A stretch of DNA of 64,000 nt from an uncultured Ruficoccus sp. (GCA_965140785.1 OZ223475.1:128001-192000), one strand, 5' to 3'; positions 17,946-41,836 are shown, numbered from the stretch's first letter. The notes: generated by a model from the letters alone, not told the origin. Numbers and translations are program-made.

Positions 17946-18518
17946 AAATCTCGGTTATTCTAAGCTGAGTACTTCGAGCATCGGGGAGGTCTTGCGAAAG
18001 GCTTGTATTCGCCCGTCGCCGGAGCGCAGCAGCCGTTTGGACTGGAAGACGTTTATCCGTGTTCACGCCGATCAGCTTGCCGCAACTGACTTCTTCATGG
18101 TGCCGGTTTGGACCTTGCGCGGCCTGGCTATGTATCGGGTGCATTTCGTGATCGACCTGCTGACACGCAAGGTGGAGATCACGCACATCGGTTGCCAATA
18201 CTCGGGCGAATTGATGCTTCAAATTGCCCGGAACCTGACGGATGCGTTCGAAGGATTCCTGACCGGCAAGAAATACCTGCTGCATGATCGCGATACTCTC
18301 TTTACAAATGCGTTCCGTGAGTTGTTGCGAAGTAGTGGCACTATCCCTTTCTGGCTTCCTGTGTGCATGCCGATGATGAACGGCGGGCGCTACGCCAGCC
18401 CGCCCGGCTACGCCGAGTGCTTCGTCAAATCGATCAAGCGTGTACCGAGCCTGCGAAGCGGCGACAAAGCGAAGCGCCCATGCCTGGACAAGATGATTTT
18501 CTTCAGCGAGGATGCTCT
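17946..18518 (+). pseudogene. Internal fragment of the rve transposase with two short inserts
   Basis: High identity to 3757-4268; carries inserts at 18385-18408 and 18442-18480; deleted through to the TGGCA end. Confidence 0.88.
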
Positions 18519-18525
18519 TCTGGCA

Positions 18526-18671
18526 CGCGCATGTGACTGAGCGATGCGCGTCAATGCGACTGCGTGCAACGCTACTGGTTTAATTACGCCTTAACTCGAA
18601 AATGAATGAAGTTGCTGTATGCTGGTAATCAGTGATTTAGGTGCGGATGTCCGCGTCCCGCCACCTCCACC
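18526..18671 (+). repeat. att-like boundary unit 2
   Basis: GCCTTAACTCG, IHF-like AATCAGTGATTTA and core TCCCGCCACCTCCACC (18656-18671). Confidence 0.8.
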
Positions 18672-18769
18672 GGTCTGCGTTGTGCGAACATGACAATTTT
18701 AGCAGATTCACCGTCTTGCGGCCTAGGTTCGTTTTTGGGGAAATATCTGCCTCACGAGAAGGGTAGGTT

Positions 18770-19918
18770 TCAATGGCTGCCACTGCCTGCTCCTAGGTAG
18801 TTGCCGTAGCCGACGATCAGGGTGGAGAGTATCAGGGTGGCGATTCCTGCTGCGATTAGGATGTGTGTACGCAGGCTGCTTCCTGCCCATTCTTTGAGTG
18901 CGACACCCCACAGCGTGCTGAAAATGATGATGCTTGCCATATGAAGGGTCCAGGAAGAGAACTGGAAGTCTCCCATCTGTGTCTCCCCCATGGAATAAAA
19001 GAAGAACTGAAGATACCAGGTTGTTCCTGCCAGAGCGCAAAATAAGTAGTTTGACAGTCGGGGAATACGCAGCTCTTTGCCTGAGTGCTCCAGATGATCG
19101 GGGGATGGTTCCTCATTTGGTCCCTGCGTATCGGAGGTCGTGTTTTTCGTAGCGCGATAATAGCGGCTGAAATATTCGTGACCACTCCGGTTCCTGATAT
19201 TTAAGGTCAGGCACCAGATGGCGTTGGAGGTAAACCCTCCCAGCAGGACCACGACCAGTTTGGGGAGCCCTGTCCACAGCACTCTTGTTCCGGCATCGGC
19301 GGAGAGCTTGGCTATGGGCTCGGCTGCGGCCAATCCATAGGCGAACGAAGCGCTCATGATGCCGGAGAAAATGGCGACAAGGATGCCCTTTTTAAAGTTA
19401 AACTCCTTGATTGTCTCTCTTTTCTTCTCAGCCGACATCTCGCGTTCCTTGCTGAGTCCGGCTAGTGCCGCGATCAAGATGCCGACCAGGCACACGAGCA
19501 CTCCCAGCAATGTTAGCTGGCCTCCTCTCGAGGCGGCGATCGCCGTGATCTCACCACTGAAAATAGGCGGGATCAAGGTGCCGAATGCCGCACAAAGTCC
19601 GAGAGCGACGCCCATCCCCAGGGACAGCCCGAGGTAGCGCATCGTGAGCCCGAACGTCAGGCCACCCATGCCCCACATAACTCCGAATATCCAGGCGTAT
19701 GCCAGGCTGGAGGTTGGGGCATGGCCGAGGACTTGGAACAGATCCTCTGTCATCATCAGGGCAAGTGCCCAGGGTACCATGATCCAGCTGAAAACACCGC
19801 CCACCAGCCAGTACGTTTCCCATGACCATTTACGCACCTGACGGTAGGGCACGTAGAAACTGGCGGCCGCGAATCCGCCGATCCAGTGGAAAATAACTCC
19901 GAGAAAAGGTCCTCCCAT
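18770..19918 (-). CDS. rhaT: L-rhamnose/proton symporter RhaT
   Basis: GVIFHWIGGFAAASFYVPY, WSWETYW, GLTMRYLGLSLG and WYLQFFFYSMGE...SSWTLHMA. Confidence 0.93.
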   Translation of the reverse strand: MGGPFLGVIFHWIGGFAAASFYVPYRQVRKWSWETYWLVGGVFSWIMVPWALALMMTEDLFQVLGHAPTSSLAYAWIFGVMWGMGGLTFGLTMRYLGLSLGMGVALGLCAAFGTLIPPIFSGEITAIAASRGGQLTLLGVLVCLVGILIAALAGLSKEREMSAEKKRETIKEFNFKKGILVAIFSGIMSASFAYGLAAAEPIAKLSADAGTRVLWTGLPKLVVVLLGGFTSNAIWCLTLNIRNRSGHEYFSRYYRATKNTTSDTQGPNEEPSPDHLEHSGKELRIPRLSNYLFCALAGTTWYLQFFFYSMGETQMGDFQFSSWTLHMASIIIFSTLWGVALKEWAGSSLRTHILIAAGIATLILSTLIVGYGNYLGAGSGSH

Positions 19919-20091
19919 GATCGTTATGTTTGGATTTTGTAGTTTAATTTACTATAAAATATTAGTTTGCTGTCTGCGGTGCTATTCGCCAGCCGACGCG
20001 ACATGGCATGTTTAGTGCATGCCTCGGTGAGCTTTCCTGCCAGAGTGTTGAGGCGATGATAGCCCAAATCTGGCCATGACCTTTGAAGAGC

Positions 20092-20808
20092 CTAGTTTCG
20101 ATCTACGGTCAGCAGCGTTTGGCGGTTATCCTTGAATTCCTCGATAGAATAGGAGGCCGCGTGCCCGTCGGCGTGAACGGTCAGATATTGCCCCGTCCCC
20201 CAGTCGCAGGGGTTGGGACCTGTTTGATTGTCCGGGTTGTTGATATAAGCCTGAGTTCCGATGAACCAGGCCCCCATGCCGCTGCTTACACTATGTGCGG
20301 TTACATACATGACGGTGTCGGCGGGTTTATTAAGCTCGCATTGATGAACGCGGTCATAGGCTGGCGCCTGAAACAAGAGCGTGTTGCAGCCGTAGTCCGA
20401 GACGGTGCCATGGTGTTCCTCTGCTTGTGGATCAAAGAGGACGGACAATTCCTTGGTGGCGGAGGAGTCATCGGGGACGTACGCTGAAAGGCAGGCTTCC
20501 TGGAGGGGGTTGATCCAGCTCCCAGTTTCGCTGATCTCTCGGGAGTGCGGGAAGCATCCTTGGTTGTCGTTGACGTAGAGTAGGGTGGCTGTGCCCAGTT
20601 GGCGAAGATTGCTCAGGCTCCGGATTGCGTTGGATTGTTCCCTGGACTTACTTACCGCCGCGATGATTATCGCGCCCAGGATGGAGATCACAGCAATCAC
20701 ACAGAGTAGCTCAATGAGAGAAAAGCCGTTTATACGATGACGGTAGCGCCTGCCTCTGTAGCCCTTACGGAAAAGAGCAGACATGGCTTTGGTCTTTGTG
20801 GGGGGCAT
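20092..20808 (-). CDS. Prepilin-type N-terminal cleavage/methylation protein (H-X9-DG-like C-terminus)
   Basis: GFSLIELLCVIAVISIL, SLSNLRQLGTA and C-terminal VHADGHA. Confidence 0.88.
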   Translation of the reverse strand: MPPTKTKAMSALFRKGYRGRRYRHRINGFSLIELLCVIAVISILGAIIIAAVSKSREQSNAIRSLSNLRQLGTATLLYVNDNQGCFPHSREISETGSWINPLQEACLSAYVPDDSSATKELSVLFDPQAEEHHGTVSDYGCNTLLFQAPAYDRVHQCELNKPADTVMYVTAHSVSSGMGAWFIGTQAYINNPDNQTGPNPCDWGTGQYLTVHADGHAASYSIEEFKDNRQTLLTVDRN

Positions 20809-20896
20809 CGGGGTGGAGATTGTGTTTTTATTCTATGGCAAGGAAAGTTGCCGACAAGCTCGTGGGCTTATTTTTTTCTTGTAGAGATTGATGGTT

Positions 20897-20914
20897 TATT
20901 TAATCGTGTCAATA
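20897..20914 (-). promoter_or_regulatory. Candidate LacI operator TATTGACACGATTAAATA
   Basis: Exact 18-bp match (reverse complement) to 24902-24919; lies between the divergent pilin and GH106 genes. Confidence 0.7.
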
Positions 20915-21091
20915 GAAATACATGGCTTAGTGCGGAAGTCAGCGCCTGTGGCGTCGGAGTCGCATGGTCGTGCAGCCCTTAACTCGTTAATTTACATGGC
21001 TATTTATCGTCTCAGGAACACTTCCATTTTCTTTTCGGTCGGTCGAATGCTTGCTGGCATGGGATGTCGCCGGGCTCTGCATGCTAAGAAA

Positions 21092-24000
21092 ATGACGCAC
21101 CTATTTCTTCTGCAGGCCTGCTTGTCTTTCGTGGCGTCATGCGCGGTGGCCTCCACGGAGGGTTTGGAGTCTGGATTCGAATCTCCCCCTGATGCGGCCA
21201 AGGTTTACACCTGGTGGCATTGGATGAACGGCAACGTCACCCGGGAGGGAATCCGGGCTGACCTCGAGGCGATGAAGGATGTTGGGTTGGGCGGTTTTCA
21301 GCTGTTCGATGTCCTCGGTGCTCCAGAAGGGGCGGTCAAATACGGTAGCCGCGAGTGGCGGGATATGGTGCTGTATGCGCTAGAGGTGGCAGATGAACTT
21401 GGCCTGGACGCCGGGATGCATAATTGCGCGGGATGGTCGAGCAGCGGGGGGCCGTGGGTTTCGATTGAGCAGTCTATGCAGGAGCTGGTTTTCAGCGAAA
21501 TCACTATTCAGGGGGCGGGCGAGGTTGACGTGTTGCTGCCGGTGCCCTTGACGCGCCTGGGGTATTATCGCGATGTCGCTGTATTGGCTTTCCCCTCCGT
21601 GGCCAGTGGCGATGGCACTGCCCAGGAGACTCCGTTCCTGAGCAGCAATATTGAGGGCTTTGAGGTGGCAGCCCTTACGGATGCCCTGGATGATACGGTA
21701 GTGGAGATGCTACCTCCTGCCGAGGGCAACCCGCATTATATTCAGTACGAATACGCACGGCCCTATCGGGCATGCCGGCTTTATATCGATCCAGATCCGG
21801 CCCGGCTGGGTTTCTCGGGATACCTTTCTGCCTCTGACGATGGTATTCATTTTGAGAAGATAACAGAGTTTTCATTCGACTATGGCTCACACGCAAAAAC
21901 CTTCAGTTTTCCCGAAGTTTCAGCCCGCTTTTATCGGCTGGTTGTCACGCAGGCGGCAGGTTCGCTTTCATCCTCGCGCTCGACCATGACCATCAAGGCC
22001 ATGGTGCTCGATGATGATTTCCGGCTGATGAACTACGAGCAAAAGGCTGGGTTTCAGCGGGCAGCGTATCCAGGAATTGATACACAGGCGGATCGCGTTC
22101 CCGGGAGGTTCTCGATCCCGCTGGAGTCTGTCGTTGACTTGACCGACCGTGTGGATACGGACGGGTGCTTGAGCTGGGATGCACCTCCGGGGGAGTGGAC
22201 GATCCTGCGGGTCGGGCATACTGCCATGGGTGAGGTGAACATGCCCGCCAGTGTAGGGGGACGGGGATTGGAGTGCGACAAGCTAAGCAGAGCGGCGGTG
22301 GTGGCATTCTGGGATGGCATGATGGCCAAGGTGGTAGCTGACGCAGGGCCGCTGGCAGGGACGACACTGACAAATATCCTCGTCGACAGCTACGAAAAGC
22401 GCTCCACTAATTGGACCGTCGAGTTGCCGGAAGAGTTTCGTGCAAGGTGCGGATACTCCCTGCGTAAATTTCTTCCGGCTATGACGGGGAGGATTGTTGA
22501 AGATGGGATTCTTACTGAGCGTTTCCTATGGGATTTCCGGCGTGTACTGGCAGACATGTTTGAAGAGAACTATTCGACTGTGCTGGCTGAGTTGGCAGCC
22601 GCGCACGGCATCGAGCTGGCCTTGGAGCCCGGTGGAAGCTCCCCGGCCGACGATTTGCTTTACAGCCGCCCGGCAGCGATCCCAATGATGGAGTTCTGGG
22701 TCGGTGGTGATCCTTTGTGGCGTACGCGCACGACTCCGCTGGCCGCTTCTGCCGCTCACATCTATGATAAAACCTATGTCGGTGGAGAAGCGTTTACGGG
22801 GCGTCCTTCGGTCGAGCGATGGACAAACGATCCGCATTCACTGAAAGCACTCGGTGATGCCGTCTATTGTAGCGGCGTTAATCGCTTCTACATGCACACC
22901 TTTGCTCATCAGCCCTGGCTGGATCGTGCTCCGGGCATGACAATGGGGCGCTGGGGGACGCACTTTGACCGGATGAATACCTGGTGGAGCCAGGCTTCTG
23001 ATTGGGTTGAATACATGGGCCGGGCCCAGTATCTTTTACAGTCCGGTAAGTTTGTTGCCGATGTGTTGTATTTTTACGGTGAAGGGGCACCGGTTGGTGA
23101 CCGCGCGCTCGTCCCTCCCGTTCCAGCAGGGTACCGCTATGACCGCTGTAATGCGGATGTGATTCTAAACCGTATGCAGGTTCGGGACGGTCGATTAGTC
23201 CTGGATGGAGGGCAGAGCTACCGGCTCCTCGTACTGCCGCCTGAGCGGCAGATGACCCCGGAAATGCTGCGAAAGATTCGTGAGCTGGTCATGGCTGGGG
23301 CGACGGTCATGGGACCGCGTCCGGAGATATCTCCGAGTCTGAAAGATTATCCGGAATGCGATCGTGAGGTGGCTGTTTTGGCCGGGGAGATTTGGGGGAA
23401 CTGTGACGGGCAGGTGGTAAAGGAGCACACGCTCGGCCGTGGGCGTGTGCTCTGGGGAAATAGTGTGAGTGATGTGCTTGTGGAGATGGGGGTTGAGCCT
23501 GATTTCATGATGACGCCTGAGCCGGCACCGGTTGGCTTTATTCATCGCAAGACGGATCAGGCGGATATCTATTTTGTGGCGAACGTCATGGATAGCCCAC
23601 AGCGGGTGGAATGCTCTTTTCGTGTTCATGGTAAGGTGCCGGAGCTTTGGCAGCCTGATACGGGTGGGCGGAGGCCGGCTGCCGTTTACCGCGATGAAGG
23701 TAGCCGGACCGTTGTGCCGTTGGAGCTTGGGCCTTCCGAGTCATTGTTTGTGATCTTTCGAAGGGATCAAGTTGGGGGAAATCATTTGGTGCGTGCGTAC
23801 GCTTCAGCGCCAGAGGTTGAAGGGGTGGGAATCGTCAATGCCGTGTACGAGGGAATCCAGGACCCCTCAAGGTGTGTCGTGGTGACTGCCCGGGTGGATC
23901 GTCTATTGAAAGATAATGACGGCAGTGTGTCTGTTTCCAATCGATCGCTTGGAGGAGACCCCGCCCCCGGCATGAAAAAGCAACTGCGCGTTCGATACCG

Positions 24001-24820
24001 CACGGATGGACTTGAGAAAGAGGCGACGATTAGTGAGGGTCTGGAGCTGTCGCTTGCGGATTTGTCTGGAGGGGGGACTTCACCATCATTTCGGGTTGAG
24101 GGTCTCGACGCAGGGCGGGTTGAGTTGACTGCCTCCGGTGCCGGTACGTTTTATCTGGAGTCGGCGGGTGGGGAGCTTTGCGAGGTCGTCATCGATCGGC
24201 TGCCGCCCCCGCTGGAAATTTTAGGAGGGTGGACGGTTGAGTTTCCAGAGGGGAAGGGGGCTCCTGATTCTATTGTCCTCGATCGATTGATGTCATGGAC
24301 GGATTATCCTGAATCAGGCGTGCGGTATTTCTCGGGCACCGCGACATACCGGAAAACCTTTGAACTGCCAGCGGACATGACTGGTGATGGTCTTGAGCTG
24401 GATTTGGATCTGGGGGAAGTAAAAAATATCGCGCGGGTGTGGTTGAATGGGGTGGACCTTGGTCTGCTGTGGAAGGCGCCGTTCAGGCTAGATGCCTCTG
24501 GAGTCCTTCGGTCCGGGCGTAACGATCTCGTGATCGAAGTGACGAATCTGTGGCCGAACCGATTGATCGGCGATGAGCAATTGCCCTCGGATTGCAACTG
24601 GAAAAAGGGCAGGGGGGCGAGTGAGGGGTCATATTTGACGCAGTGGCCGCAGTGGCTCCTCTACGATATGTCCAGCCCGTCTGGACGTGTGACGTTTTCG
24701 AGTTGGAAGCATTGGAACAAGGATGACGGGCTGTTGCCGTCCGGTTTACTGGGACCGGTAAAAGTGCTTCCTCAAGCAAGGCGAATCGTGGTTCTGGGTG
24801 AATTTTCGCCTAGCCGGTAA
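21092..24820 (+). CDS. Alpha-L-rhamnosidase GH106 with inserted discoidin-like and lectin-like modules
   Basis: TWWHWMNGNVTREGIRADLEAM, GWSSSGGPW, GLECDKLS, LVDSYE and VTNLWPNRLIGD. The ORF is open from 20888; the signal-peptide start at 21092 was chosen. Confidence 0.9.
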   Translation: MTHLFLLQACLSFVASCAVASTEGLESGFESPPDAAKVYTWWHWMNGNVTREGIRADLEAMKDVGLGGFQLFDVLGAPEGAVKYGSREWRDMVLYALEVADELGLDAGMHNCAGWSSSGGPWVSIEQSMQELVFSEITIQGAGEVDVLLPVPLTRLGYYRDVAVLAFPSVASGDGTAQETPFLSSNIEGFEVAALTDALDDTVVEMLPPAEGNPHYIQYEYARPYRACRLYIDPDPARLGFSGYLSASDDGIHFEKITEFSFDYGSHAKTFSFPEVSARFYRLVVTQAAGSLSSSRSTMTIKAMVLDDDFRLMNYEQKAGFQRAAYPGIDTQADRVPGRFSIPLESVVDLTDRVDTDGCLSWDAPPGEWTILRVGHTAMGEVNMPASVGGRGLECDKLSRAAVVAFWDGMMAKVVADAGPLAGTTLTNILVDSYEKRSTNWTVELPEEFRARCGYSLRKFLPAMTGRIVEDGILTERFLWDFRRVLADMFEENYSTVLAELAAAHGIELALEPGGSSPADDLLYSRPAAIPMMEFWVGGDPLWRTRTTPLAASAAHIYDKTYVGGEAFTGRPSVERWTNDPHSLKALGDAVYCSGVNRFYMHTFAHQPWLDRAPGMTMGRWGTHFDRMNTWWSQASDWVEYMGRAQYLLQSGKFVADVLYFYGEGAPVGDRALVPPVPAGYRYDRCNADVILNRMQVRDGRLVLDGGQSYRLLVLPPERQMTPEMLRKIRELVMAGATVMGPRPEISPSLKDYPECDREVAVLAGEIWGNCDGQVVKEHTLGRGRVLWGNSVSDVLVEMGVEPDFMMTPEPAPVGFIHRKTDQADIYFVANVMDSPQRVECSFRVHGKVPELWQPDTGGRRPAAVYRDEGSRTVVPLELGPSESLFVIFRRDQVGGNHLVRAYASAPEVEGVGIVNAVYEGIQDPSRCVVVTARVDRLLKDNDGSVSVSNRSLGGDPAPGMKKQLRVRYRTDGLEKEATISEGLELSLADLSGGGTSPSFRVEGLDAGRVELTASGAGTFYLESAGGELCEVVIDRLPPPLEILGGWTVEFPEGKGAPDSIVLDRLMSWTDYPESGVRYFSGTATYRKTFELPADMTGDGLELDLDLGEVKNIARVWLNGVDLGLLWKAPFRLDASGVLRSGRNDLVIEVTNLWPNRLIGDEQLPSDCNWKKGRGASEGSYLTQWPQWLLYDMSSPSGRVTFSSWKHWNKDDGLLPSGLLGPVKVLPQARRIVVLGEFSPSR

Positions 24821-24901
24821 ATGGATGCACGGCCAGGAGTGTCGAGCTTTGGGGTGTTTCAAAAACTCAGGAATAACTTTTCCGTTAATTACACGCTTGT
24901 G

Positions 24902-24919
24902 TATTGACACGATTAAATA
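24902..24919 (+). promoter_or_regulatory. Candidate LacI operator overlapping a TTGACA -35 box
   Basis: TATTGACACGATTAAATA, 25 bp upstream of GH78. Confidence 0.7.
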
Positions 24920-24944
24920 GCGTAAATAATTTTCCATCCAATCT

Positions 24945-27356: not shown

Positions 27357-27370
27357 GTTTTCTACACACT

Positions 27371-29056: not shown

Positions 29057-29057
29057 T

Positions 29058-30911: not shown

Positions 30912-30932
30912 GTCCCCGGTCTGAGCGGGGTC

Positions 30933-32009: not shown

Positions 32010-32082
32010 GAAGTGTTTATGTGCCAAGATGATGGCATTGATTGTGACGATGAATAAACAGTAAAATGCGGTATGGCGAATA

Positions 32083-32097
32083 TATTGACTCGATTAA
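32083..32097 (+). promoter_or_regulatory. Candidate LacI operator TATTGACTCGATTAA
   Basis: Same motif as 24902; upstream of lacI (autoregulation). Confidence 0.65.
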
Positions 32098-32319
32098 GGT
32101 TAAAACGGTATTTTTGCCCCTGATATTGTGTATATTTCCTTATTGTTCAAGGCTGGCATGCCATTTCAGGATCACTATCAGGAGTGATCGTAGGGAAAGC
32201 AACTTCAGTGCTAAATCTTGGCTTGGATCACTCGCTTTAGCTTTTGTGGCTCCTTGGTAACGCAGATTTTTACTGCATAAGCGATTCGTGTTATCGAATT
32301 TTAAAAAAAATCTTGATTT

Positions 32320-32335
32320 TATTTACTCGATTCAA
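32320..32335 (+). promoter_or_regulatory. Candidate LacI operator TATTTACTCGATTCAA
   Basis: Motif variant upstream of the PEP-CTERM gene. Confidence 0.6.
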
Positions 32336-32376
32336 TTGAGTTGTTGCATCTCGAACCCCATACAAAGGAAAACAAG

Positions 32377-33408: not shown

Positions 33409-33467
33409 CTTCGGCTGTTGACTGGATCGATGGTGTTTTTGTCCTGATATTCCACGGAGGATTTGTG

Positions 33468-33497
33468 GCCGCTCCCCTTTGTCCAGGGGAGGGCGGC
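33468..33497 (+). terminator. GC-rich hairpin, possible terminator
   Basis: GCCGCTCCCCT...AGGGGAGGGCGGC downstream of the PEP-CTERM gene; no clear U-tract. Confidence 0.35.
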
Positions 33498-33624
33498 ATT
33501 GAGGCATGTTATCGCAATATCACTCTCCGAGTGTTCCACTTGCTTATTATGTGCCCCGCCGTCGGTTGGAAGCGCGTAAGGCGCTACGCTTTTTCTGTAT
33601 GAATGTTGACTTTGTTTTGAGTTT

Positions 33625-33639
33625 TATTTACTCGATTAA
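33625..33639 (+). promoter_or_regulatory. Candidate LacI operator TATTTACTCGATTAA
   Basis: Motif just upstream of the GH3 start and downstream of TTGACT. Confidence 0.65.
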
Positions 33640-33653
33640 CTGATTTTAGATTG

Positions 33654-36600
33654 ATGAAAAAATATTTCGTTACCGCCCTCTGCTTGTTTGCCTGGTTTGG
33701 GTGCCCCGTGTATCTGTTGGCCGGAACGCTTTATACTAGTGATTTTCGGGACGGCACCTTAAGGTCACCTTTGCGCGTATACGCGACGCGAGGCATTGAC
33801 GTGAAGGTTGAGGAGTCTCGCCTGCGTATTGACTGCGGTAATGGAAATAACTTCGCAAAAGGATTTGTCTATCTTGACGGCGAAGCAGGCGACTCCTGGG
33901 GGGCGTCAGATGACTTGAATTTCTTTAAGCACCCCTTGGTTTTAGATATTCGGGGGATTGCGTTTTCCCGTACGCCGGCGGAGCACGAGGCTTACGACTA
34001 CTACGCCTTGCTAGGGGTTCCTTTTGAGGGAAAGAGTAAAAACCTGACCCCGCGTGATGCGTTTACGGGAGCATATGTGCGTCTGAGTCTTAACGAGGCG
34101 GGGGAGTATTCACTGATTGTTGGCGAGCGTGTGATCGGAGGCCTGGCCGTGGGAGATATTCAGCGCCTGACGGGGCGGCCCGATGGTCTGACACTGGTTC
34201 TGGATCGTGATCGTTGGTTGGTGACGCTGAGTGGCTCCCGGTTTATTGATAATGGCATGCCGTCCCTGCAGGGTTGTTTTGAGCAATTGAACTCAAAGAT
34301 ACTGGCGGGGGAAGGCGTTTCATTTGCTACCGGTCTGATCAATTATTGTGATATGAAGGAACCGTACGCGGTGTCATTGAGCGGATTTGAAATCAGCACC
34401 GATATTCCTTCTGGACTCGCCGCCTGTCTAAAGGCGCCCTCCGGAAAAAAAACACGGGAGGTTCAGGCCACTGCCAGTGCATCGGTGAGGGCTTCGAGGC
34501 CGATTGACGCGATCGACGGCGAAGCCACGATGTGGAAGGCACCCTCCGGCGAGCAGTGGTACCAGCTTGATCTGGGCGAGATGGTGCCCATTGACACTAT
34601 CCATGTGGAGTGGACGGTAAACTGCGCGCGTCAGTACGTGGTAGAGGTTTCTGATGATGGTGAGGACTTTCGCGTGGTGGCGCAGGAGGATGATTTGGAG
34701 GTTGATGCGAACCGGAAATGGTTACGTAAGCCCGGCGAGCAAATGTATGCGCTTGAGAAGCCGATTCCAGCTCGGTATGTGCGGCTCCGATTGAGGGAGG
34801 CATCGCATCCGGAGATTGGTTACGAGCTGACGGAAGTACTCATCAACGGTAGCGTCCCCATATGCTTTGCACCGGTTGAAAATACGGGAATGCTTCGCGA
34901 TGAAAGTATCCCGCTGGATGAGCGTGTGGACGCGCTGTTGTCGATGATGACCTATCGCGAGAAGCTCCATCTGGCTGGCGGGTACGACAAGTTCAATATC
35001 GACGGGCTGCCGCGTTTCGGACTGAGCATGGTCCAGATGAGCGATACGACCTCGGGGGTGAAACTGCGGGAGAAATGTCGGGTCCTGGATGAGTCCACGA
35101 GCTTCCCCACGGCGATAGCGTTGGGGGCGACCTGGCATCCGGAGTTGGCGTACGAGATGGGGGAGGCGATTGCTCAGGAGTGCCGCGCGAATGGATCACG
35201 TATCCTACTGGCCCCCGGCATTAACATCTATCGCTCATCGACCTGCGGACGTAACTTCGAATACTTTGGCGAAGACCCGCTCCTGACTGCAGACATGGCC
35301 GTGGCCTACATTCAAGGGGTTCAGTCTCAGGAGGTCATCGCCACGGTGAAGCACTTCATCGCCAACAATAATGAGTTCCTGCGGCACCAGAGCAATGCGG
35401 TGATTGATGATCGTGCCTTGCACGAGATTTACCTGCCGGCCTTTAAGGCGGCGATCCAGCAAGGGCAAACGCGTGCGCTGATGTCTTCCTATAACTGGTT
35501 CAATGGGGAAAAGTGCGGTGAAAGCGAAACTCTGTTGACGGATATTTTGCGTGATGAACTCGGCTATGAGTGGATGGTGATGAGTGACTGGGGAGGGACG
35601 AAGGATTTAAGTAAGGTTCCTGGCTCCGGACAAAACATCGTGATGCCGGAGAAGAAGCTTTTGCACTCGATCATGATGAAGCGCTACGCGCAGAACCCGC
35701 AAGCGGCAGACGCTGAATTAACAGCGATGGTACGCCCCACGGTGAAGACGCTGCTGGATACAAAGGCCTGGTTTGCGACGAATGAGGGAGAGCCTGAGTT
35801 TCTTGAAATATTTCCGGTGCATAAAACCGTTGCACGTCGCGTCGCGACGGAGGCTGTCACCCTGCTGAAGAACGATCACATTCTCCCGCTCAAGAAGACG
35901 GACGAACTTCTGGTCATGGGAGAGGAGGCAGCTGTGAAGGACGCCCAGTCCGGAAGCGGCTCCGGCGAGGTCAAGGGCTACGACCATGTCAGCTATCTGG
36001 ATGGGCTGATGAAAACATTCAGCCATGTGACCTATAAAAGTGATGCTTCGGATCAGGAGATCAAAAGGGCAGGAACTATCATATATTTTCTGGATACAGG
36101 TGGAGGAGAGTCGGAGGACCGTCCATTTGAGTTGGATGCGGCGCTGGTGACGGATATTCGCCGGGTCGCTGCGCTGAATGCACGGGTTGTCGTGGTGGCT
36201 TCCTCGGGGTCGGCATTCAGTACTGATTGGGTTGACGATGTCGAGGCGCTGGTCCTGGCATACTATCTTGGGCAGGAGCGTGGGTCGGCACTGGCTGCCA
36301 TCCTTTCCGGTGACGCCAACCCATCGGGGAAGCTGCCTTTCTCCTTTGAGGTCCGTTTCGAAGATTCTCCGGCCTATGGTAGTAATGTTATCGACGGAGT
36401 CGAGGTCTGGCAGGGCAATGACAAACGCTTTAAGGATGACACCTACGACGTTAAGTATACCGAGGGAGTTTTTGTCGGCTACCGCTGGTATGAGGGGCGA
36501 GACAAGGAAGTTCGATTCCCGTTTGGTTATGGATTGTCATACACAAGCTTCCGTATCACCGGAGCGGAGGTGTCGCGCCAGGATGTTCTCGGTGACGGGC

Positions 36601-36923
36601 CGCTTGAGATCCGTGTGTCAGTCAAGAATACGGGGCCAGTTGCAGGTGCTGAAGTTGTGCAATGCTATGTGAACGATGTGGTAAGCAACGTGCCGCGCCC
36701 CTACCGTGAGTTGAAGTCCTTTAAAAAGCTGTTCCTCAATCCCGGGGAGGAGAAGACGGTGGTTTTGTCGCTGGAGCCGGAAGACTTTGCCTATTGGGAT
36801 ACGGATCAACGCCGCTGGGTGATTGAGCCCGGAGCCTTCAACCTGCTCATCGGTAATTCGAGTCGGGATGTTCAGCAGACGATTTCGGTGAAACTCGATA
36901 GAGACGAGCCCGTCGCGCTGTGA
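33654..36923 (+). CDS. Secreted GH3 beta-glucosidase-like enzyme with F5/8 (discoidin) domain and unknown N-terminal domain
   Basis: GRNFEYFGEDP, ATVKHF, VMSDWG, PSGKLPFSF and FPFGYGLSYT; QWYQLDLG (discoidin). Confidence 0.93.
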   Translation: MKKYFVTALCLFAWFGCPVYLLAGTLYTSDFRDGTLRSPLRVYATRGIDVKVEESRLRIDCGNGNNFAKGFVYLDGEAGDSWGASDDLNFFKHPLVLDIRGIAFSRTPAEHEAYDYYALLGVPFEGKSKNLTPRDAFTGAYVRLSLNEAGEYSLIVGERVIGGLAVGDIQRLTGRPDGLTLVLDRDRWLVTLSGSRFIDNGMPSLQGCFEQLNSKILAGEGVSFATGLINYCDMKEPYAVSLSGFEISTDIPSGLAACLKAPSGKKTREVQATASASVRASRPIDAIDGEATMWKAPSGEQWYQLDLGEMVPIDTIHVEWTVNCARQYVVEVSDDGEDFRVVAQEDDLEVDANRKWLRKPGEQMYALEKPIPARYVRLRLREASHPEIGYELTEVLINGSVPICFAPVENTGMLRDESIPLDERVDALLSMMTYREKLHLAGGYDKFNIDGLPRFGLSMVQMSDTTSGVKLREKCRVLDESTSFPTAIALGATWHPELAYEMGEAIAQECRANGSRILLAPGINIYRSSTCGRNFEYFGEDPLLTADMAVAYIQGVQSQEVIATVKHFIANNNEFLRHQSNAVIDDRALHEIYLPAFKAAIQQGQTRALMSSYNWFNGEKCGESETLLTDILRDELGYEWMVMSDWGGTKDLSKVPGSGQNIVMPEKKLLHSIMMKRYAQNPQAADAELTAMVRPTVKTLLDTKAWFATNEGEPEFLEIFPVHKTVARRVATEAVTLLKNDHILPLKKTDELLVMGEEAAVKDAQSGSGSGEVKGYDHVSYLDGLMKTFSHVTYKSDASDQEIKRAGTIIYFLDTGGGESEDRPFELDAALVTDIRRVAALNARVVVVASSGSAFSTDWVDDVEALVLAYYLGQERGSALAAILSGDANPSGKLPFSFEVRFEDSPAYGSNVIDGVEVWQGNDKRFKDDTYDVKYTEGVFVGYRWYEGRDKEVRFPFGYGLSYTSFRITGAEVSRQDVLGDGPLEIRVSVKNTGPVAGAEVVQCYVNDVVSNVPRPYRELKSFKKLFLNPGEEKTVVLSLEPEDFAYWDTDQRRWVIEPGAFNLLIGNSSRDVQQTISVKLDRDEPVAL

Positions 36924-36961
36924 CCTGACCGGTTCTCTCTCGGAATGCTGAAACTTACCCT

Positions 36962-38941
36962 ATGAACATACTGGAAATAATCCTTTTTATTGCAGCCGTT
37001 GTAGGCGTGATTTCGCTCGGCATATGGAAAAGCCGGGGTGAGCGGCTGGAGGGGGAACAGGGGGCGACGGATTACTTTCTTGCCGGGCGTGGGCTGACGT
37101 GGTGGCTGGTCGGGTTCTCGCTCATCGCGGCGAACATCTCCACGGAGCAGTTTGTGGGGATGTCAGGCTCGTCGGCTAATTGGCTGGGGATGGCCATTGC
37201 CTCTTATGAATGGATGGCTGCGATAACGCTGGTGGTGGTCGGGTTTTGGTTCCTGCCGCGTTTTCTGCGCGCGGGCTTGTATACCATTCCAGAGTTCCTG
37301 GAGTATCGTTTTAATGGAGTGGCGCGGTTGGCGATGGCCATACCCGCCGTGCTGACATTGGTTTTTGTCGCAACATCATCGGTGATCTTTTCGGGGGGCA
37401 AGTTTGTGTCCGAGTATTACAACACCGTCCCCGTGCTGAGCAACCTGACCGCCACCTGCTGGATCATTGCCATCTTTGCGGCCGTGTATGTGTTTGTCGG
37501 TGGCCTGAAGGCATGTGCCTGGACGGATTTGGTTTGGGGCTCTGCGTTGATTGTCGGAGGCATCATCGTGATGGTCCTTGCCTTTGGTAGGCTTTCCGAG
37601 CGTCCCGCTGAGGATTTGATACAGACCAAGGTCGCGAATTCCACTGCGACAGTTTCCGGGTTGGAAAATGCCGGAGCCTGGGAGCGCTTCATGCTGCTCA
37701 ATGACGGCATCGAGGGTGAGGCTGAGGCCGTAAACGGCACTAACGGCAGCGGTGGCAAGGTCCATATGGTGCGACCCAAGGAAGATAGCGATCTTCCGTG
37801 GACGGCGTTGCTGATCGGCTTGTGGATTCCTAATTTCTTCTATTGGGGGCTGAACCAATACATTGTGCAGCGCACCCTTGGGTCGAAGTCGCTGGCGGAA
37901 GGGCAGAAGGGGATCGTTTTCGCTGCCGGCCTGAAGCTGCTTATCCCGTTTCTTGTGGTGATACCCGGGATACTGGCTTTTAACCTTTTCAGGCAAGACC
38001 TGCACGCCTGCGCCGACTCACAGAACTCAGCGATTATGCAGCAATTGCGGGCGGATCAAGTCGTCCGGGTTGACGAGGAATTTGTGCGTTTGAAGCCGGC
38101 AACGGCGCTCGAGCTCTATGCCCATAACGCTGCTGCGTCTGGTGAGATGGGCCCGTCGAGCACGTTTGATCAGGATACCCCTCCGGTTGAAATGGCTGCC
38201 GCTATAAATGCCCTGGCCAACGTCTCCAAGGGGGATGGTGCGGCCGTGGCCGGAACGTTGAAGGGGTATGACTACGATGCCGCGTTTCCAGTCCTGGTGC
38301 GCAACCTGGTCAAGCCGATGCCGCTGGTATCGTGGTTTATTCTGGCGGCGCTCGCTGGGGCGGTGATCAGTTCGTTGGCTTCGATGCTCAACTCCGCCTC
38401 AACGATTGCTACCATGGATCTCTATGCCAGGTTTACCGGAGAAAAAGACTCGGCCAGGCTGGTCAAAGTCGGCCGGGCGTTTGTGGTGATTTTTGTCATC
38501 CTGGCAGCCTTAGTCGCACCCAGTCTCGATAGCTTCACGAGCATATACGCGTATATCCAGGAGTTTCAGGGTTTTATTTCTCCCGGTATCCTCGCGGTCT
38601 TTATTCTGGGTTTCTTCTCGCCTCAAACCCCGCGTTACTTTGGGGCTCTAGGTATAGGAATAAATGTCATCTGCTATGCTGCCATGAAGTGGCTGGTGGG
38701 GCCGTGGTTTGTCACCCGTGGTTGGTGGTACTCCGACCAGATCGCCTTCCTTGATCGCATGGCCGTATGCTTTTTTGTCGTCCTGTTGTCCGGCGTGCTT
38801 GTCACTATAATCAACCCCATGAAGCAAGTGGTGCAGATGCCCGTCAATGACCAGATTGAGCTGAAAAATTCACCGGTCGCCAAACTGTTCGGGGGTGTCG
38901 TTGTTGTTGCCACCATCATGCTCTACGTGATCTTTTGGTAA
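36962..38941 (+). CDS. Sodium:solute (sugar) symporter SSS
   Basis: DYFLAGRGLTWW, AANISTEQFVGMSG, FYWGLNQYIVQRTL and SSLASMLNSASTI. Confidence 0.94.
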   Translation: MNILEIILFIAAVVGVISLGIWKSRGERLEGEQGATDYFLAGRGLTWWLVGFSLIAANISTEQFVGMSGSSANWLGMAIASYEWMAAITLVVVGFWFLPRFLRAGLYTIPEFLEYRFNGVARLAMAIPAVLTLVFVATSSVIFSGGKFVSEYYNTVPVLSNLTATCWIIAIFAAVYVFVGGLKACAWTDLVWGSALIVGGIIVMVLAFGRLSERPAEDLIQTKVANSTATVSGLENAGAWERFMLLNDGIEGEAEAVNGTNGSGGKVHMVRPKEDSDLPWTALLIGLWIPNFFYWGLNQYIVQRTLGSKSLAEGQKGIVFAAGLKLLIPFLVVIPGILAFNLFRQDLHACADSQNSAIMQQLRADQVVRVDEEFVRLKPATALELYAHNAAASGEMGPSSTFDQDTPPVEMAAAINALANVSKGDGAAVAGTLKGYDYDAAFPVLVRNLVKPMPLVSWFILAALAGAVISSLASMLNSASTIATMDLYARFTGEKDSARLVKVGRAFVVIFVILAALVAPSLDSFTSIYAYIQEFQGFISPGILAVFILGFFSPQTPRYFGALGIGINVICYAAMKWLVGPWFVTRGWWYSDQIAFLDRMAVCFFVVLLSGVLVTIINPMKQVVQMPVNDQIELKNSPVAKLFGGVVVVATIMLYVIFW

Positions 38942-39104
38942 GGCAGCTTATCGCGTTGCTTCCGTATGGCCTGTGAGAACTGTAGCTTGCTATGCAAAGC
39001 TCGTCGGCCATTAGATGCAATGCTCGGCAGCGGTCGTAAGGGGCACATGGCTGGACGGAGAATCCGCCAGAGCGTGACGGACTCTTGTATAGGCCGTAGC
39101 TAAA

Positions 39105-39139
39105 AAGAAACGCCCCGCCTTAAGGGCGAGGCGTTTCTT
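39105..39139. terminator. Rho-independent (bidirectional-type) terminator
   Basis: AAGAAACGCCCCGCC-TTAAG-GGCGAGGCGTTTCTT after the SSS gene. Confidence 0.75.
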
Positions 39140-39326
39140 GATGCACGGCCTCCGGGCGTCCCTTGTCTCCTTCAGTTCACCCCGGCCTGTACGTCGAGGA
39201 GGCGGTGGAGCTTTTCGGTGGCGAGGGGAGGAGGTTGAGGTTACCTTTGAGGGCTTCGGTGAAGGCGCTCTGGAGGGACCAGAGGGTGCGTTCACGGAAG
39301 CAGGGGTGGACGGGGTGGCGCCACTT

Positions 39327-40525
39327 GAGTATCAGATTTTCTGGTTTTCTTGTACCTTGGGAGCAACTTGCAGCTTTTCGAGAAAGCTGGCTTGAGCCCG
39401 CAAGCTTGAGTTTTGCTGAGCATGTTGGCGGGGTGGGGGAAGCTGCGAAGCGCTGTCCTATGAACCGTCATCAGCAGCAAGTCATTGAATACTTGGTCGA
39501 GGTACCGAACTGAGGCATAGCCTCGGTGACAAAGCGCAGCGCCCAAATCGTATTCTTCGTGAGCAACTCGACATCCACGCCACGGGCAAACGCATTCGCT
39601 TCAACGCGAACCAGCGCAGGCGTTTGGCCGAGAAGGTCGCTGCTTGGGGCGTAAGATATTGATGAAAATCGCGACGCTCGTGACGCCGGAGACGATCTAC
39701 CGCTGGCATCGTCAATTCGTCGCGATGGCCTATGCTCCTAAGGGTCATGATCATTCCGTTGTCCATGCTCGGCGGGCCGAGCGCAATGCGCTCATCATCA
39801 AGCTGGCGGTTGAGAATTCGGGCTTTGTATACACGCGTACCCAATATTTGATACATAATTTCGGCTATCCCAAGCTGAGCACTTCGACCATCGGAGAGGT
39901 TCTGCGCGAGGCGGGTATTCGCCCGTCGCCGGAGCGCAGCACTCGTCTGGACGGGAAGACGTTTATCCGTGTTCACGCCGATCAGCTTGCAGCCTCGGAC
40001 TTCTTCATGGTGCCGGTGTGGACCTTGTGCGGCCTGGCCATGTGCCGGGTGCATTTCGTGATCGACCTGATGACACGCAAAGTAGAGATCACGCACATCG
40101 GTTGCCAATACTCCGGAGAGTTGATGCTTCAAATTGCCCGGAACCTGACGGATGCGTTCGAAGGATTCCTGACCGGCAAGAAATACCTGCTGCATGATCG
40201 GGATACTCTCTTTACAAATGCGTTCCGTGAGTTGTTGCGCAGTAGTGGCACTATCCCTTTCAGGCTGCCTGTGTGCATGCCGATGATGAACGGCGGGCGG
40301 CGAGCCAGCCCGTCCGGCTAAGCCGCGTGCTTCATCAAATCGATCAAGCTTGTACCGAGCCTGGGAAGCGGCGACAAAGCGAAGCGCCCATGCCTGAACA
40401 AGATGGTTTTTTTCAGTGAAGGTGCTCTGCGAAAGGCCATCCGTGGATATGCTCTGCATTACCATCATAAGTGGCCGCATCAGGGCCGTGACAACCAGAT
40501 CATCGAGCCGGACGTGGAAACCTTT
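39327..40525 (+). pseudogene. Degenerate rve/IS481-like transposase with four short hairpin inserts
   Basis: Colinear with 3292-4365; frameshifts and stops; inserts at 39437, 39502, 40295 and 40352; cut by IS3 at 40526. Confidence 0.88.
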
Positions 40526-41836
40526 CGACGTGCTCCCCCCCAAACAGTCCGTTATTGAATGAGAGTTCTGTGTCCTTAAACCGAACAGAACCATGTCTAA
40601 AGGAAAACATCACAGCGAAGCAGAGATCATCCGCATATTAAAGGAGGCCGCAACGGGGATGCCGGTGGCCGATCTTCTTCGTGAGCACAACATCTCACAA
40701 GGAACGTACTACCGATGGAAGAGTGCTTACAGCGGGATGCAGGTAAACGAACTGAAGCGCCTCAAAGAGCTTGAGAAGGAGAACGAGCGTTTGAAGCGTC
40801 TGGTGGCCGATCAGGCGCTGGACATTGTCATGCTCAAGGACATCAACTCAAAAACTGGTGAAGCCTGCAGCCAGACGGGTCGCGGCAGATTATCTGCAAA
40901 GCGATTATGACGTCGGCGTAACCCGTGCCTGCGGGCTGATCGGAATCTCACGTAGCAGCTACCGCTACCAATCCTGCCGTGGCGATGATGCCCCGCTGCG
41001 CACAGCGATCCGCCAAAAGGCCCAGGAGCGTAAGCGCTGGGGCTACCGACGGTTGCAGGTGTTGCTGCAACGCGACGGATACATGGATAATCACAAACGT
41101 ATTTACCGGATCTATCGTGAGGAGGGACTGCAAGTGAGGAAGCGCCGCCGTAAACGTGCTCGCTCCAAACGCAGCTTTGAGCTGTTGCCCAGCAGTGGAG
41201 CCAACCAACGCTGGAGCATGGACTTTATGCACGACAGTACGGCCTCGGGTCGCAAGCTGCGCATCCTTAACGTGGTCGACGACTACACGCGGGAGGCTCT
41301 CTGGATGGAGGTTACCTCCTCGATTAGTGGCCAATACGTCACCCGTGTGCTGGACCGTATCATAGAACTACGCGGCAAACCCGAATGCCTGCTCACAGAC
41401 AACGGCCCCGAGTTTGCCGGGGCAGCTCTGGATGCCTGGACTTACGAGCGAAAGATCAAGCACCAGTTCATCCAGCCCGGTAAGCCCAACCAAAACGCCT
41501 ATGTCGAAAGCTTCAACGGTAAGGTCCGCGACGTACCGAGCCTGTGCCATCGGCACGGCGACACTCAAGCGAAGCGAAGACATGCCTCAACGGACACTGG
41601 TGGCGCAATATCGACCATGCCCGTCACTGTATCGAGCGCTGGAGGGAAGACTACAATCAGGTCCGACCGCACAGCTCATTGAAAAACCAAACCCCGCAAG
41701 CCTTCGCACAAAAAACGCGAGCCCCCCCCCTAGGGGGGCTACAGACCAGTAACAGGCTTGCAACTACAAACCCAAATACACAACCTAACTACCCAGCACT
41801 CTCATTTTGATCGGGACTAAAAAGGGGGGCACGTCG
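40526..41836 (+). mobile_element. Second IS3-family element (different type), degenerate
   Basis: Inverted repeats CGACGTGCTCCCCCC / GGGGGGCACGTCG. OrfA starts at 40593 (MSKGKHHSEAEIIRIL); OrfB has WSMDF, TDNGPEF and QNAYVESFNG. The slippery run appears one A short, and a 50-nt insert at 41533 frameshifts OrfB. Confidence 0.88.

Follow-up and report, generated by a model that had tools for sequence, protein, structure and literature searches.

The question raised by this locus, a 64,000-nucleotide stretch of DNA from an uncultured Ruficoccus sp. (GCA_965140785.1 OZ223475.1:128001-192000; hereafter the window), is whether the short hairpin-bearing inserts that interrupt its transposase genes represent an undescribed mobile element or the scar left by some transposase-disabling process, the two possibilities left by an earlier note on the sequence. 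The inserts described there as a discrete, recurrent and apparently undescribed ultra-short family were recovered as such, with fixed ends and no match in Rfam or the literature, and transposase genes are disrupted by them in the source genome. The features of the window are collected in Table 1.

Table 1. Inserts, host elements and the intact paralogue in the window (coordinates counted from its first nucleotide)
Feature	Position	Strand	Remarks
Module, subtype A, 38 nt	18443..18480	+	AG of Glu codon replaced in KR/E/CLD
Module, subtype A, 38 nt	40353..40390	+	Second copy of the IS hosting 18443-18480; site identical
Module, subtype A2, 43 nt	39503..39545	+	AG replaced in second Glu codon of LVE/E/NRIL
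Module, subtype B, 49 nt, tail ...GCGAAGACA	41534..41582	+	AG of Glu codon replaced in RD/E/CLN of IS3-family orfB
24-nt in-frame hairpin insert, candidate member only	18385..18408	+	7-bp stem; GCGTAGC on opposite strand
Degenerate copy of the 18385-18408 24-nt insert, second IS copy	40295..40318	+	
23-nt insert AGC-T-GCGAAGC-GCT, candidate member only	39437..39459	+	Directly 5' of transposase start codon
rve-type (distant IS481/IS3-like) transposase gene copy, 5'-truncated	17947..18540	+	Two inserts
Second, degenerate copy of rve-type IS	39327..40555	+	Four inserts, extra stops; ends by eye from alignment
IS3-family element	40556..41810	+	Ends by eye from inverted repeats
orfA of IS3-family element	40593-40910	+	
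orfB fragments of IS3-family element	40795-41532 and 41583-41807	+	
Intact rve-type transposase paralogue	3235..4470	+	412-codon open frame

The four long inserts are genuine. A pattern built on their shared frame found 4 matches in the window against 0.00 expected from 100 shuffles, and the inner hairpin varies in sequence while its pairing is kept (GC-GAA-GC, GAGGC-ATA-GCCTC, GTGCC-ATC-GGCAC), as had been claimed from the sequence; the coordinates first given for the long inserts corresponded to the module plus the preceding target G. The folding energies of the window inserts were unexceptional relative to shuffles (z from -1.5 to +1.7). The modules were present with 0 differences in contigs of the public runs X1 and X2, which may be the source assembly's own sample, and are therefore no artefact of the source assembly. 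An X2 contig lacks exactly the 43 nt at 39503-39545 and an X3 contig from another organism, with 8 differences from the window IS3 over 208 bases, lacks exactly the 49 nt at 41534-41582, 'AG' standing in place of the module in both. The intact rve-type paralogue (3235-4470) is empty at 4/4 sites (3390-3407, 3435-3451, 4183-4199 and 4222-4237), two of which (3435-3451 and 4222-4237) are by alignment those of long modules, the latter matching the module at 18443-18480 in its truncated rve-type transposase pseudogene. The module at 40353-40390 differs from that at 18443-18480 by a single hairpin change (GGGAAGC), the A2 module at 39503-39545 supplies an in-frame TGA, and the 3' end of the degenerate rve-type copy (39327-40555) is cut off by the IS3 element. 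The short inserts (23-24 nt), which have the look of a stem, T or TG and GCGNAGC, are likewise real indels when set against the intact copy, but were not supported as independent members of the family: they occur in the same IS at the same site only, as single events in one IS lineage, and follow a different rule, that of pure insertion with no AR replaced.

Alignment of 41 distinct module sequences revealed invariant TAC.GA and AGCG.AGCG blocks flanking the variable hairpin. The module, 29-50 nt in size (about 70-90 nt in tandem forms), reads 5'-TACCGAR, a variable hairpin, YGACA, a linker of 1-9 nt, the mini-hairpin box AGCGNAGCG and then CCCA or AAGACA-3', the variable hairpin being free in sequence, closed by G-C and often carrying tandem G.A. 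The insertion rule was read from empty alleles at 7 sites (the window, X2, X3, G073 and the G095 family): the target is S/AR/N, where S is G and rarely C, and the TA...CA module takes the place of the AR dinucleotide. Near-identical empty alleles show that in coding targets the last two bases (AG or AA) of a Glu, rarely Gln, codon are replaced, the empty allele having AA at LID/E/Y in G073 and AG, AA and AG at GS/E/F, PW/Q/N and RD/E/C, respectively, in the G095 family. No target duplication was found at these 7 sites, and the terminal sequences TACCGAG and GCGCCCA bear no inverted-repeat relation to each other; we know of no transposase chemistry that matches the loss of 2 nt on insertion. 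The 5' junction is fixed (G/TA) and the 3' junction (CA/N) is variable, with CA, AA or TA at the module end. Of the 10 coding site classes, 9 are in codon phase 0, for which the background is 0.43-0.47. The local target S/AR/W holds only about 5 bits, and the choice of host is unexplained by it. Subtypes recur at unrelated sites, A2 in the rve-type gene and at FTR/E/CL of an IS3 element, and B at RD/E/CLN, RWKR/E/LG and LID/E/Y.

A census of the source genome was carried out with nhmmer, which returned 28 matches, namely 26 family members in IS elements and 2 noise matches; no stand-alone small-RNA gene for the module was seen. Enrichment in IS genes, which the earlier note had proposed as a check, was confirmed: rve-like DNA amounts to 39.4 kb (0.90% of the genome) yet houses 24 of 25 modules, the 25th lying in an orfA. 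The accompanying claim that the inserts occur only inside transposase genes holds for the source genome, where rve/IS3-type transposase genes hold 26/26 copies, each on the sense strand, but not for the family: in other Opitutales the module also occupies domain I of group II introns, T- or D-loops in tRNA-gene fragments that have been duplicated, and intergenic repeats, the copies there sitting within larger repeats. Among the IS3 copies of the source genome, blastn aligned only stretches of 53-89 nt across the module, with 83-95% identity, and deletion derivatives with hybrid modules were located at C26:99297, C26:178767, C10:469905, C39:139356, C48:103174 and C10:410203. Module copies are degenerate in the source genus, and there is therefore no sign of current activity there.

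The module pattern was detected in 32/401 genomes, against 5 control matches in total, with the highest per-genome counts being 51, 50, 40 and 33 and up to 4 modules in one gene. Sense orientation was also seen in the examined tRNA loci and in three Rfam-confirmed group II introns, where, against the RF02001 matches, the module stands as inserted sequence within domain I; forward and reverse strand counts (17/7 in the source genome, 22/28 in G073) show that orientation tracks the host gene and not the genome strand. The tRNA-linked copies are accompanied by duplicated 3' ends, trailers and an antisense T-arm. Simple insertion does not account for these additions. The modules themselves lie in duplicated fragments next to an intact gene, and the sole interrupted tRNA-Ser(GGA) gene has an intact twin, which argues that the module is disruptive.

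Copy dynamics were followed in G073, G095 and G046. In G073 at least 36 module-bearing copies of an IS3 element show 100% identity across 1328 nt, about 38 of about 42 copies are filled, two otherwise identical copies are without the module and two are without the orfA insert. No transposition event was observed directly, and presence or absence among identical IS copies could reflect recombination alone. The 33-nt GS/E/F module has 0-2 differing positions across 6 IS lineages at dS 0.06-0.32, and these sequences, like the blastn alignments of the source-genome IS3 copies, show the modules to be younger or more constrained than their hosts; the presence matrix of 5 inserts by 8 lineages is a mosaic.

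An alternative is an intron-like or recoding element, tolerated because of its removal from RNA or its bypass by the ribosome, which would leave module-bearing transposase genes and introns functional; we consider this reading unlikely. At least one insert occurs in every one of the 8 IS lineages of G073, G095 and G046, 5 of the 8 are otherwise open once the inserts are removed in silico, pairwise dN/dS is 0.14-0.37 in 28/28 pairs, and among the identical module-bearing G073 copies, in which both inserts are in frame with a single TGA, none was seen free of both. The sense-only orientation is consistent with this reading, as is a host range of tRNA loops, an intron and mRNAs like that of archaeal protein-spliced introns, and at LVE/E/NRIL the AAC that precedes the TGA, together with an AAT directly after the module, would allow a hop to restore the frame. 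However, take-off and landing codons are unmatched at most sites, excision of TA...CA leaves one extra G, and when the G is excised together with the module the frame survives in just 5 of 8 site types, those of 39, 51, 45, 39 and 36 nt, and is lost in those of 44, 38 and 38 nt, as it is in that of 34 nt at GS/E/F. The tRNA-linked modules lie in duplicated fragments and their intact counterparts remain, EndA (PF01974) was found in 0/5 and RtcB in 2/5 module-rich genomes, the purifying selection may antedate recent insertions, and two orfB-intact G073 copies could mobilise the others in trans. Archaeal BHB introns of tRNA, rRNA and mRNA transpose between sites and resemble the module in size, non-canonical tRNA-loop positions, occurrence in few mRNAs, related copies at different sites and sense orientation; the module differs in being bacterial, without EndA in the genomes just mentioned, with no evident bulge-helix-bulge, and with tRNA copies that are pseudo-fragments. 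Bypass elements (T4 gene 60 and the mitochondrial 'byps') are likewise structured coding inserts of 27-55 nt, often with a stop at the hairpin start, whereas the take-off and landing codons of the module match at only 2 of the inspected sites and non-coding RNAs are also hit.

The concentration in overwhelmingly selfish hosts bears on the 'scar of a process' of the earlier note, in which a host or third-party defence would use a templated system to write the module into transposase genes, group II introns and targets of that sort and so disable them. The targeting of conserved Glu/Gln codons in one phase and the accumulation of several modules in a single gene point the same way, and the 2-nt replacement might be likened to the target loss of target-primed reverse transcription. 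This mark is nevertheless improbable: no candidate system was found, the module-bearing genomes G019, G035 and G011 have no reverse transcriptase (RT) match, tRNA genes are also struck, a hit that would amount to self-harm, IS elements with a module nonetheless reach about 40 copies in a burst, and the subtypes diverge as lineages of a replicating element, unlike copies of one template. Even less probable is insertion at the RNA level, in which ligation or RT template switching would join a small RNA into broken loops in RNAs that are abundant or retro-transcribed, followed by recombination of the cDNA with the gene. The sense-only orientation, a host range that takes in group II intron RNA as well as tRNA loops (at G57/A58 and in the D-loop), the variable 3' and fixed 5' junctions, the CCA that terminates many tails and between-module deletions resembling RT copy-choice would all fit it; on the other side, the same three genomes have no RT match, the tRNA duplicates carry 3' trailers and no added CCA, IS3 elements have no RNA stage, the filling of nearly all G073 copies is hard to attain via cDNA recombination, and no stand-alone small-RNA gene is visible in the source genome.

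A REP- or PATE-like hairpin element that an HUH enzyme (RAYT or IS200/IS605-type) would mobilise as single-stranded DNA, the link drawn by the earlier note, was not supported and is also quite unlikely. Like REPs, the module is a short G+C-rich hairpin repeat without inverted ends or target duplication; it carries a bulged T, the target G plus module gives a GTAC start near the GTAG of REPs, and its tail box AAGCGNAGCGC is listed in Table 1 of PMC2817692 as the loop of enterobacterial REPs. The REP tags GTAG or CGTC are nevertheless missing from the module, which starts TACCGAR and yields GTAC only with the target G; REPs are extragenic, high-copy and arranged as BIMEs, whereas the module is intragenic in all source-genome copies and unpaired, replaces two bases and takes its orientation from the host transcript. 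In REP systems a RAYT gene co-occurs and usually has its REPs on either side; here Y1_Tnp was matched in 24/41 relatives without tracking the module (the module-bearing G003 and G011 have no match), and although the source genome has two Y1_Tnp genes, and one tRNA-linked module (L072) has a Y1_Tnp-like ORF at a distance of about 430 nt, the inverted repeats flanking the former are unrelated to the module. PATEs and IS608-type ends share sub-terminal bulged-T hairpins, duplication-free insertion and non-autonomous miniatures, but have a fixed 4-5-nt target and lose nothing, while the module loses AR, has no TnpA/TnpB partner and totals 29-50 nt; no conserved tetramer or pentamer stands 5' of it, the upstream tetramers varying (GCGT, CGAG, CGAC, GCGC, TTCG and others). 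RVT_1 likewise does not track the module, TnpB-type genes (PF07282) occur in 0/5 module-rich genomes, and no mobilising gene was found among the HUH/RAYT, RT, TnpB, EndA and RtcB candidates.

Comparison was extended to other described families. Searches of Rfam and the literature left the module unmatched: Rfam, self-cleaving ribozymes included, gave 0 window matches at the gathering threshold, and E-value scans of 43 loci returned nothing beyond tRNA, group II intron and chance rows that fell short of the gathering score, none for the module itself. Group II introns and twintrons share its host range (IS elements and other introns), sense orientation and lack of target duplication, and a group II intron, a six-domain ribozyme, was rejected on the absence of such domains, termini unlike GUGYG...AY and the lack of an Rfam match to the module. 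Rejected too were a TIR-type MITE, both terminal inverted repeats and target-site duplication being missing, and an integron attC site, the R''/R' cores (RYYYAAC...GTTRRRY) being absent from the 41 aligned modules and the junctions being G/TA and CA/N as against G/TT. Rickettsia palindromic elements and intragenic MITEs are also small repeats within protein-coding genes, sometimes in frame, and at 100-150 bp are set apart from the module by size.

The reading we favour, with slightly better than even confidence, is that the long inserts are a family of ultra-small non-autonomous mobile insertion modules of Opitutales (Verrucomicrobiota), the window copies being best read as old relics that interrupt IS elements already in decay. 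The placement of all copies on the sense strand suggests that insertion is coupled to transcription or proceeds via RNA. After the first insertion, modules would spread with the host repeat and among paralogues by recombination or homing-like conversion, which would explain their near-restriction to multicopy or conserved sequences. Two modules within one gene recombine, with loss of the intervening DNA. A more specific version, which we regard as possible though doubtful, is a bacterial mini-element that invades transcribed selfish and structured RNA genes by a codon-phase-aware, sense-only insertion at Glu/Gln codons, coupled to transcription or RNA, and is either removed or bypassed in RNA or homes among repeats.

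If mobile, the module would be among the smallest mobile units known and a parasite of parasites, residing in transposase genes, group II introns and tRNA-gene fragments. Its signature, two bases replaced on one strand only, matches no described transposition chemistry and could flag an unknown enzyme activity, be it one that writes short structured DNA in a strand-specific way or a bacterial removal or bypass of short mRNA inserts. Annotation pipelines will label module-bearing IS elements and tRNA genes as pseudogenes, and the module makes deletion hot spots within IS elements. Should the more specific version be true, these inserts would constitute a new mobile-element class, with members of about 40 nt that are parasitic on other mobile elements.

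The four long inserts of the window share one layout, which opens with TACCGAR, continues with a hairpin that differs in sequence from insert to insert, YGACA, a short linker and AGCGNAGCG, and closes with a tail whose last bases are CA. Their positions (see table) agree with those of the earlier note, except that the preceding target G is left out of each span. The frame said there to be shared was searched for as the pattern GTACCGA, gap, GACA, gap, AGCGMAGC, which yielded four matches in the window against 0.00 expected from 100 shuffles. Folding of the window inserts revealed no excess stability, and a hairpin-versus-shuffle count over 105 inner segments, which mixed chance matches with family members, was kept out of the evidence. 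These sequences were taken as inserted rather than native because empty alleles exist, including those of the intact paralogue of the rve-type host gene in the window. Read support was obtained from contigs of public sequencing runs: the modules were found with 0 differences in Logan contigs of two same-organism runs (X1 and X2), which are possibly the assembly's own sample; one contig of run X2 lacks exactly 39503-39545, with AG in place; and a contig of run X3, from a different organism and with 8 differences to the window's IS3 element over 208 bases, lacks exactly 41534-41582, where AG restores the motif RDECLN. While the long inserts were confirmed, this was the case only in part for the short ones. 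The 24-nt and 23-nt inserts are real indels and do have the described look (stem, T or TG, GCGNAGC, which forms a stable mini-hairpin, and stem), with the motif on the opposite strand in one of them as stated. They are pure insertions in which AR is not replaced, and with blastn-short each recurred only in copies of one IS and at the same site. Each is a single event, and membership of the family is unproven.

Location of the inserts, their comparators and further loci (positions without prefix are those of the window)
Feature	Position or genome	Details
Long insert	18443-18480	preceding target G left out of span
Long insert	40353-40390	preceding target G left out of span
Long insert	39503-39545	preceding target G left out of span
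Long insert	41534-41582	preceding target G left out of span
Short insert, 24 nt	18385-18408 / 40295-40318	
Short insert, 23 nt	39437-39459	
Intact paralogue of rve-type host gene	3235-4470	open frame of 412 codons; all four sites of the gene empty
Run X1, record 1	39487-39613	
Run X1, record 7	41481-41591	
Subtype A	G000 (genome holding the window)	KR|E|CLD
Subtype A2	G000	LVE|E|NRIL and IS3 FTR|E|CL
Subtype B	G000	RD|E|CLN and RWKR|E|LG
Subtype C'	G000	WR|E|YN
Subtype C	G000	PW|Q|N
Stretch just upstream of IS copy	39172-39325	79-81% identical to two stretches of contig C43
Two stretches of contig C43	G000:C43:222749-222903 and 226892-227046	flank a 309-codon Y1_Tnp (HUH) gene
tRNA-Gly(GCC) locus	G000:C48:337513-337790	
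tRNA-Ser loci	G000:C8:4478, C13:39788, C26:68274, C48:175018	
Congener copy of the window's IS3 (L194)	G002:C74:68679-68978	192-nt deletion; no module
Insert in IS3 orfA, 28 nt (G073)	L148:968-995	tail-box-like ACGAGCGCAAGCG; no TACCGA head
Y1_Tnp-like ORF, Puniceicoccaceae MAG	L072:309-1067	Pfam E 2.8e-7, partial match

In the genome holding the window (G000), 15 copies were identified with the strict pattern, 37 matches with a looser one (25 read as family members) and 28 matches with E up to 20 using an nhmmer profile of 41 diverse modules (26 family members and two noise). All 26 modules lie on the sense strand of rve-type genes of the IS3 family and a distant IS481/IS3-like family; Pfam transposase domains were found in 22 of 39 flanking fragments, the remainder being mostly short pieces. 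Transposase-like DNA occupies 39,418 bp in 43 blocks, or 0.90% of the genome, and holds 24 of the 25 modules listed, the 25th lying in an orfA; in this genome the modules are thus enriched in IS genes. No module was found in the 48 tRNA genes predicted by ARAGORN. Confinement to transposase genes holds in G000 but not elsewhere, where tRNA loci, group II introns and intergenic repeats also serve as hosts. Five subtypes were distinguished in G000, several of them at more than one unrelated site; sites are named by the host peptide with the interrupted codon's residue in the middle. The IS3 copies with subtype B have diverged so far that blastn aligns only a stretch of 53-89 nt that spans the module (83-95% identity), which makes the module either younger than its hosts or under stronger constraint. 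Deletion derivatives account for six copies, in each of which a hybrid module joins an upstream and a downstream site of the same gene, and degenerate modules occupy RD|E|CLN in the congeners G001 and G003. The copies in this genus look old and their host IS elements are decaying; the window modules are relics, sitting in dead IS copies that they disrupt. The deletion in a congener's copy of the window's IS3 (L194) runs between native GARTGCCT repeats at KPE|CL and RDE|CL; the sequence favoured by the module is also a slippage site.

The pattern was present in six of 41 relatives, a count that includes G000 and one match in G012 read as chance, and across the order in 32 of 401 genomes, with five matches for the reversed control pattern; counts per genome were highest in G035 (51), G073 (50), G095 (40) and G052 (33). 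A contig scan with one genome per species returned 81 loci, of which 22 were read as family members, all from Verrucomicrobiota (Puniceicoccaceae, Opitutaceae, Opitutales, Pelagicoccus, Cerasicoccus and strain DG1235) save one Lentisphaerae MAG. The remaining loci, one conserved enterobacterial gene among them, were put down to chance, as were 11 matches in viral contigs, none of which has the hairpin. Further hosts are IS3 elements in other genomes, intergenic repeats of 150-400 nt and group II introns. In the introns, subtype C is inserted into domain I by comparison with RF02001, and related introns have it at one of two positions (L067/L184 versus L089). Tandem forms were seen at L177, L179, L153, L154, L158, L160 and L181 (G052, G137 and others), consisting of a full module, CAG or AG, a second half-module (TACCGAG or TTTCGAG, hairpin, GACA and linker) and an ATAACA end, and the 3' end motif varies by subfamily as CCCA, AAGACA or AATAACA.

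At tRNA loci the module interrupts a T-loop at the G57/A58 junction (GGTTCG|AATCC). The T-loop is part of a duplicated 3' fragment, which lies 40-60 nt downstream from an intact tRNA (Ser, Arg, Gln or Pro). These fragments often form tandem units of approximately 110 nt, and each is preceded by the reverse complement of the T-arm. At one locus a duplicated 5' fragment carries the module in its D-loop, and one tRNA-Ser(GGA) gene is itself interrupted, an intact one being present in the same MAG. No integrase was found among 110 ORFs scanned within 1.5 kb of the tRNA loci. The tRNA-Gly(GCC) gene of G000 is followed by a terminator, an antisense T-arm, the 5' half of a pseudo T-arm, a unique structured 86-nt insert at the same T-loop G|A position and a duplicate of the tRNA 3' end. 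The module-bearing tRNA loci elsewhere have this architecture too, although the insert is unrelated. All four tRNA-Ser genes of G000 are followed by a common element of approximately 130 nt that terminates with a decayed tRNA-like 3' end (GTTCG...CCGCCA), which looks as though the original 3' end at each locus had been displaced by a small unit. In the tRNA-Ser genes at L014, L057 and L024 (Puniceicoccaceae and Opitutaceae MAGs), the natural sequence of the variable arm and T-stem is GGTACCGAGGGTTCG; it contains the module head TACCGAGG directly before the T-loop module site, which may be a coincidence or point to where the module came from.

Wherever an empty allele is available for comparison, the module (TA...CA) replaces AG or AA after G, rarely after C, and target duplication and inverted ends were both absent at these sites, which comprise two window sites, the two contig joints of X2 and X3, LID|E|Y in G073, and GS|E|F, PW|Q|N and RD|E|C in an IS family of G095, G046 and G073. 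Where the host is a coding sequence, positions 2-3 of a Glu codon (Gln at PW|Q|N) are lost to the module; this phase was counted in nine of ten coding site classes, against a background of 43-47% of S-A-R motifs in two intact transposase ORFs, and is treated as a lead and not a test because the classes were defined after the fact. The orientation is sense wherever the host strand is known (by our own count, approximately 13 site classes). The module has fixed ends and is a discrete unit, with a single insertion rule and a single orientation. The sense-only orientation points to coupling with transcription or to insertion through an RNA stage; against the latter, the tRNA duplicates include trailers and no reverse transcriptase match was found in G019, G035 and G011. 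Movement by an HUH enzyme, as suspected in the earlier note, is very unlikely given that there is no fixed target, that two bases are lost and that Y1_Tnp is not co-distributed with the module; nor was co-distribution found for RVT_1, TnpB-type genes, EndA or RtcB. The Y1_Tnp gene on contig C43 and its twin on C10 have their own inverted repeats. A Y1_Tnp-like ORF lies approximately 430 nt upstream of a module-bearing tRNA-Arg locus at L072, and none is present at L090, a tRNA-Arg(TCT) locus of the same layout in another genome.

An active host family was found in G073, where an IS3 element of 1328 nt is present in at least 36 copies, 100% identical over the full length, all with a module of 44 nt at LID|E|Y and, in orfA, an insert of 28 nt, both in frame and with a single TGA each. 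Two otherwise identical copies are free of the module, with GAA in place and orfB open for 346 codons, and retain the orfA insert; two others retain the module without the orfA insert, and in one the module is 14 nt shorter. Empty-site patterns were matched at 9 and 42 places in G073, and no copy free of both inserts was seen among the 40 of 161 candidates scored. The orfA insert, which replaces one A and is present or absent in otherwise identical copies, may be a partial module or one of a second kind. Across eight lineages from three genomes, the presence of five inserts is a mosaic with at least one insert in every lineage; once the inserts are taken out in silico, orfA and orfB are open in five of the eight lineages, and further frameshifts are left in three; pairwise dN/dS is 0.14-0.37 in 28 of 28 pairs, and the 33-nt GS|E|F module has 0-2 differences among six lineages with dS of up to 0.32. 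These patterns imply that modules are gained repeatedly, by mobility or homing, or kept by selection, and gain or loss is fast relative to point mutation, with recombination between modules. The burst of the IS, the purifying selection on the hosts and the lack of a fully intact copy among those scored would fit a module that is intron-like or bypassed. This is nonetheless unlikely, as simple excision fails to restore the frame at several sites, the modules at tRNA loci lie in pseudo-fragments next to an intact gene, and EndA was found in none of five module-rich genomes. Ribosome hopping fits only two inspected sites and was rejected as a general reading, as were hammerhead-like, group II domain V-like, integron attC-like, serine- or tyrosine-recombinase core and TA-duplication (IS630-like) readings, which do not fit the junctions.

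We infer that the module is a non-autonomous mobile unit. It would enter host sequence by strand-specific insertion and later spread along with the host repeat and through recombination or homing among paralogues, which the near-restriction to multicopy sequences fits; simple insertion does not account for the antisense T-arm and the duplicated tRNA 3' ends. The interpretation in the earlier note is, overall, partly supported.

The nearest known kinds are REP/RAYT elements, IS200/IS605 miniatures, intragenic MITEs (RPEs), archaeal mobile BHB introns and bypass elements, and the module fails every testable defining feature of these. Of the literature found, only Table 1 of the RAYT paper (PMC2817692) has a string, AAGCGAAGCGCC, in common with the module, and the loop of some enterobacterial REPs in that table is identical to the module tail box AAGCGNAGCGC, an identity that may reflect only the stability of the GCGNAGC mini-hairpin. 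As the note had anticipated, no described family was matched: Rfam gave 0 matches in the window at the gathering threshold and no family for the module in E-value scans of 43 loci, and no description was found in literature searches on miniature hairpins, tRNA T-loops, Verrucomicrobia repeats, module strings and tRNA partial duplications. The module is placed among the small non-autonomous repeats, with a real chance that its mechanism is new, and it is the wider family, more than the relics of the window, that is of interest.
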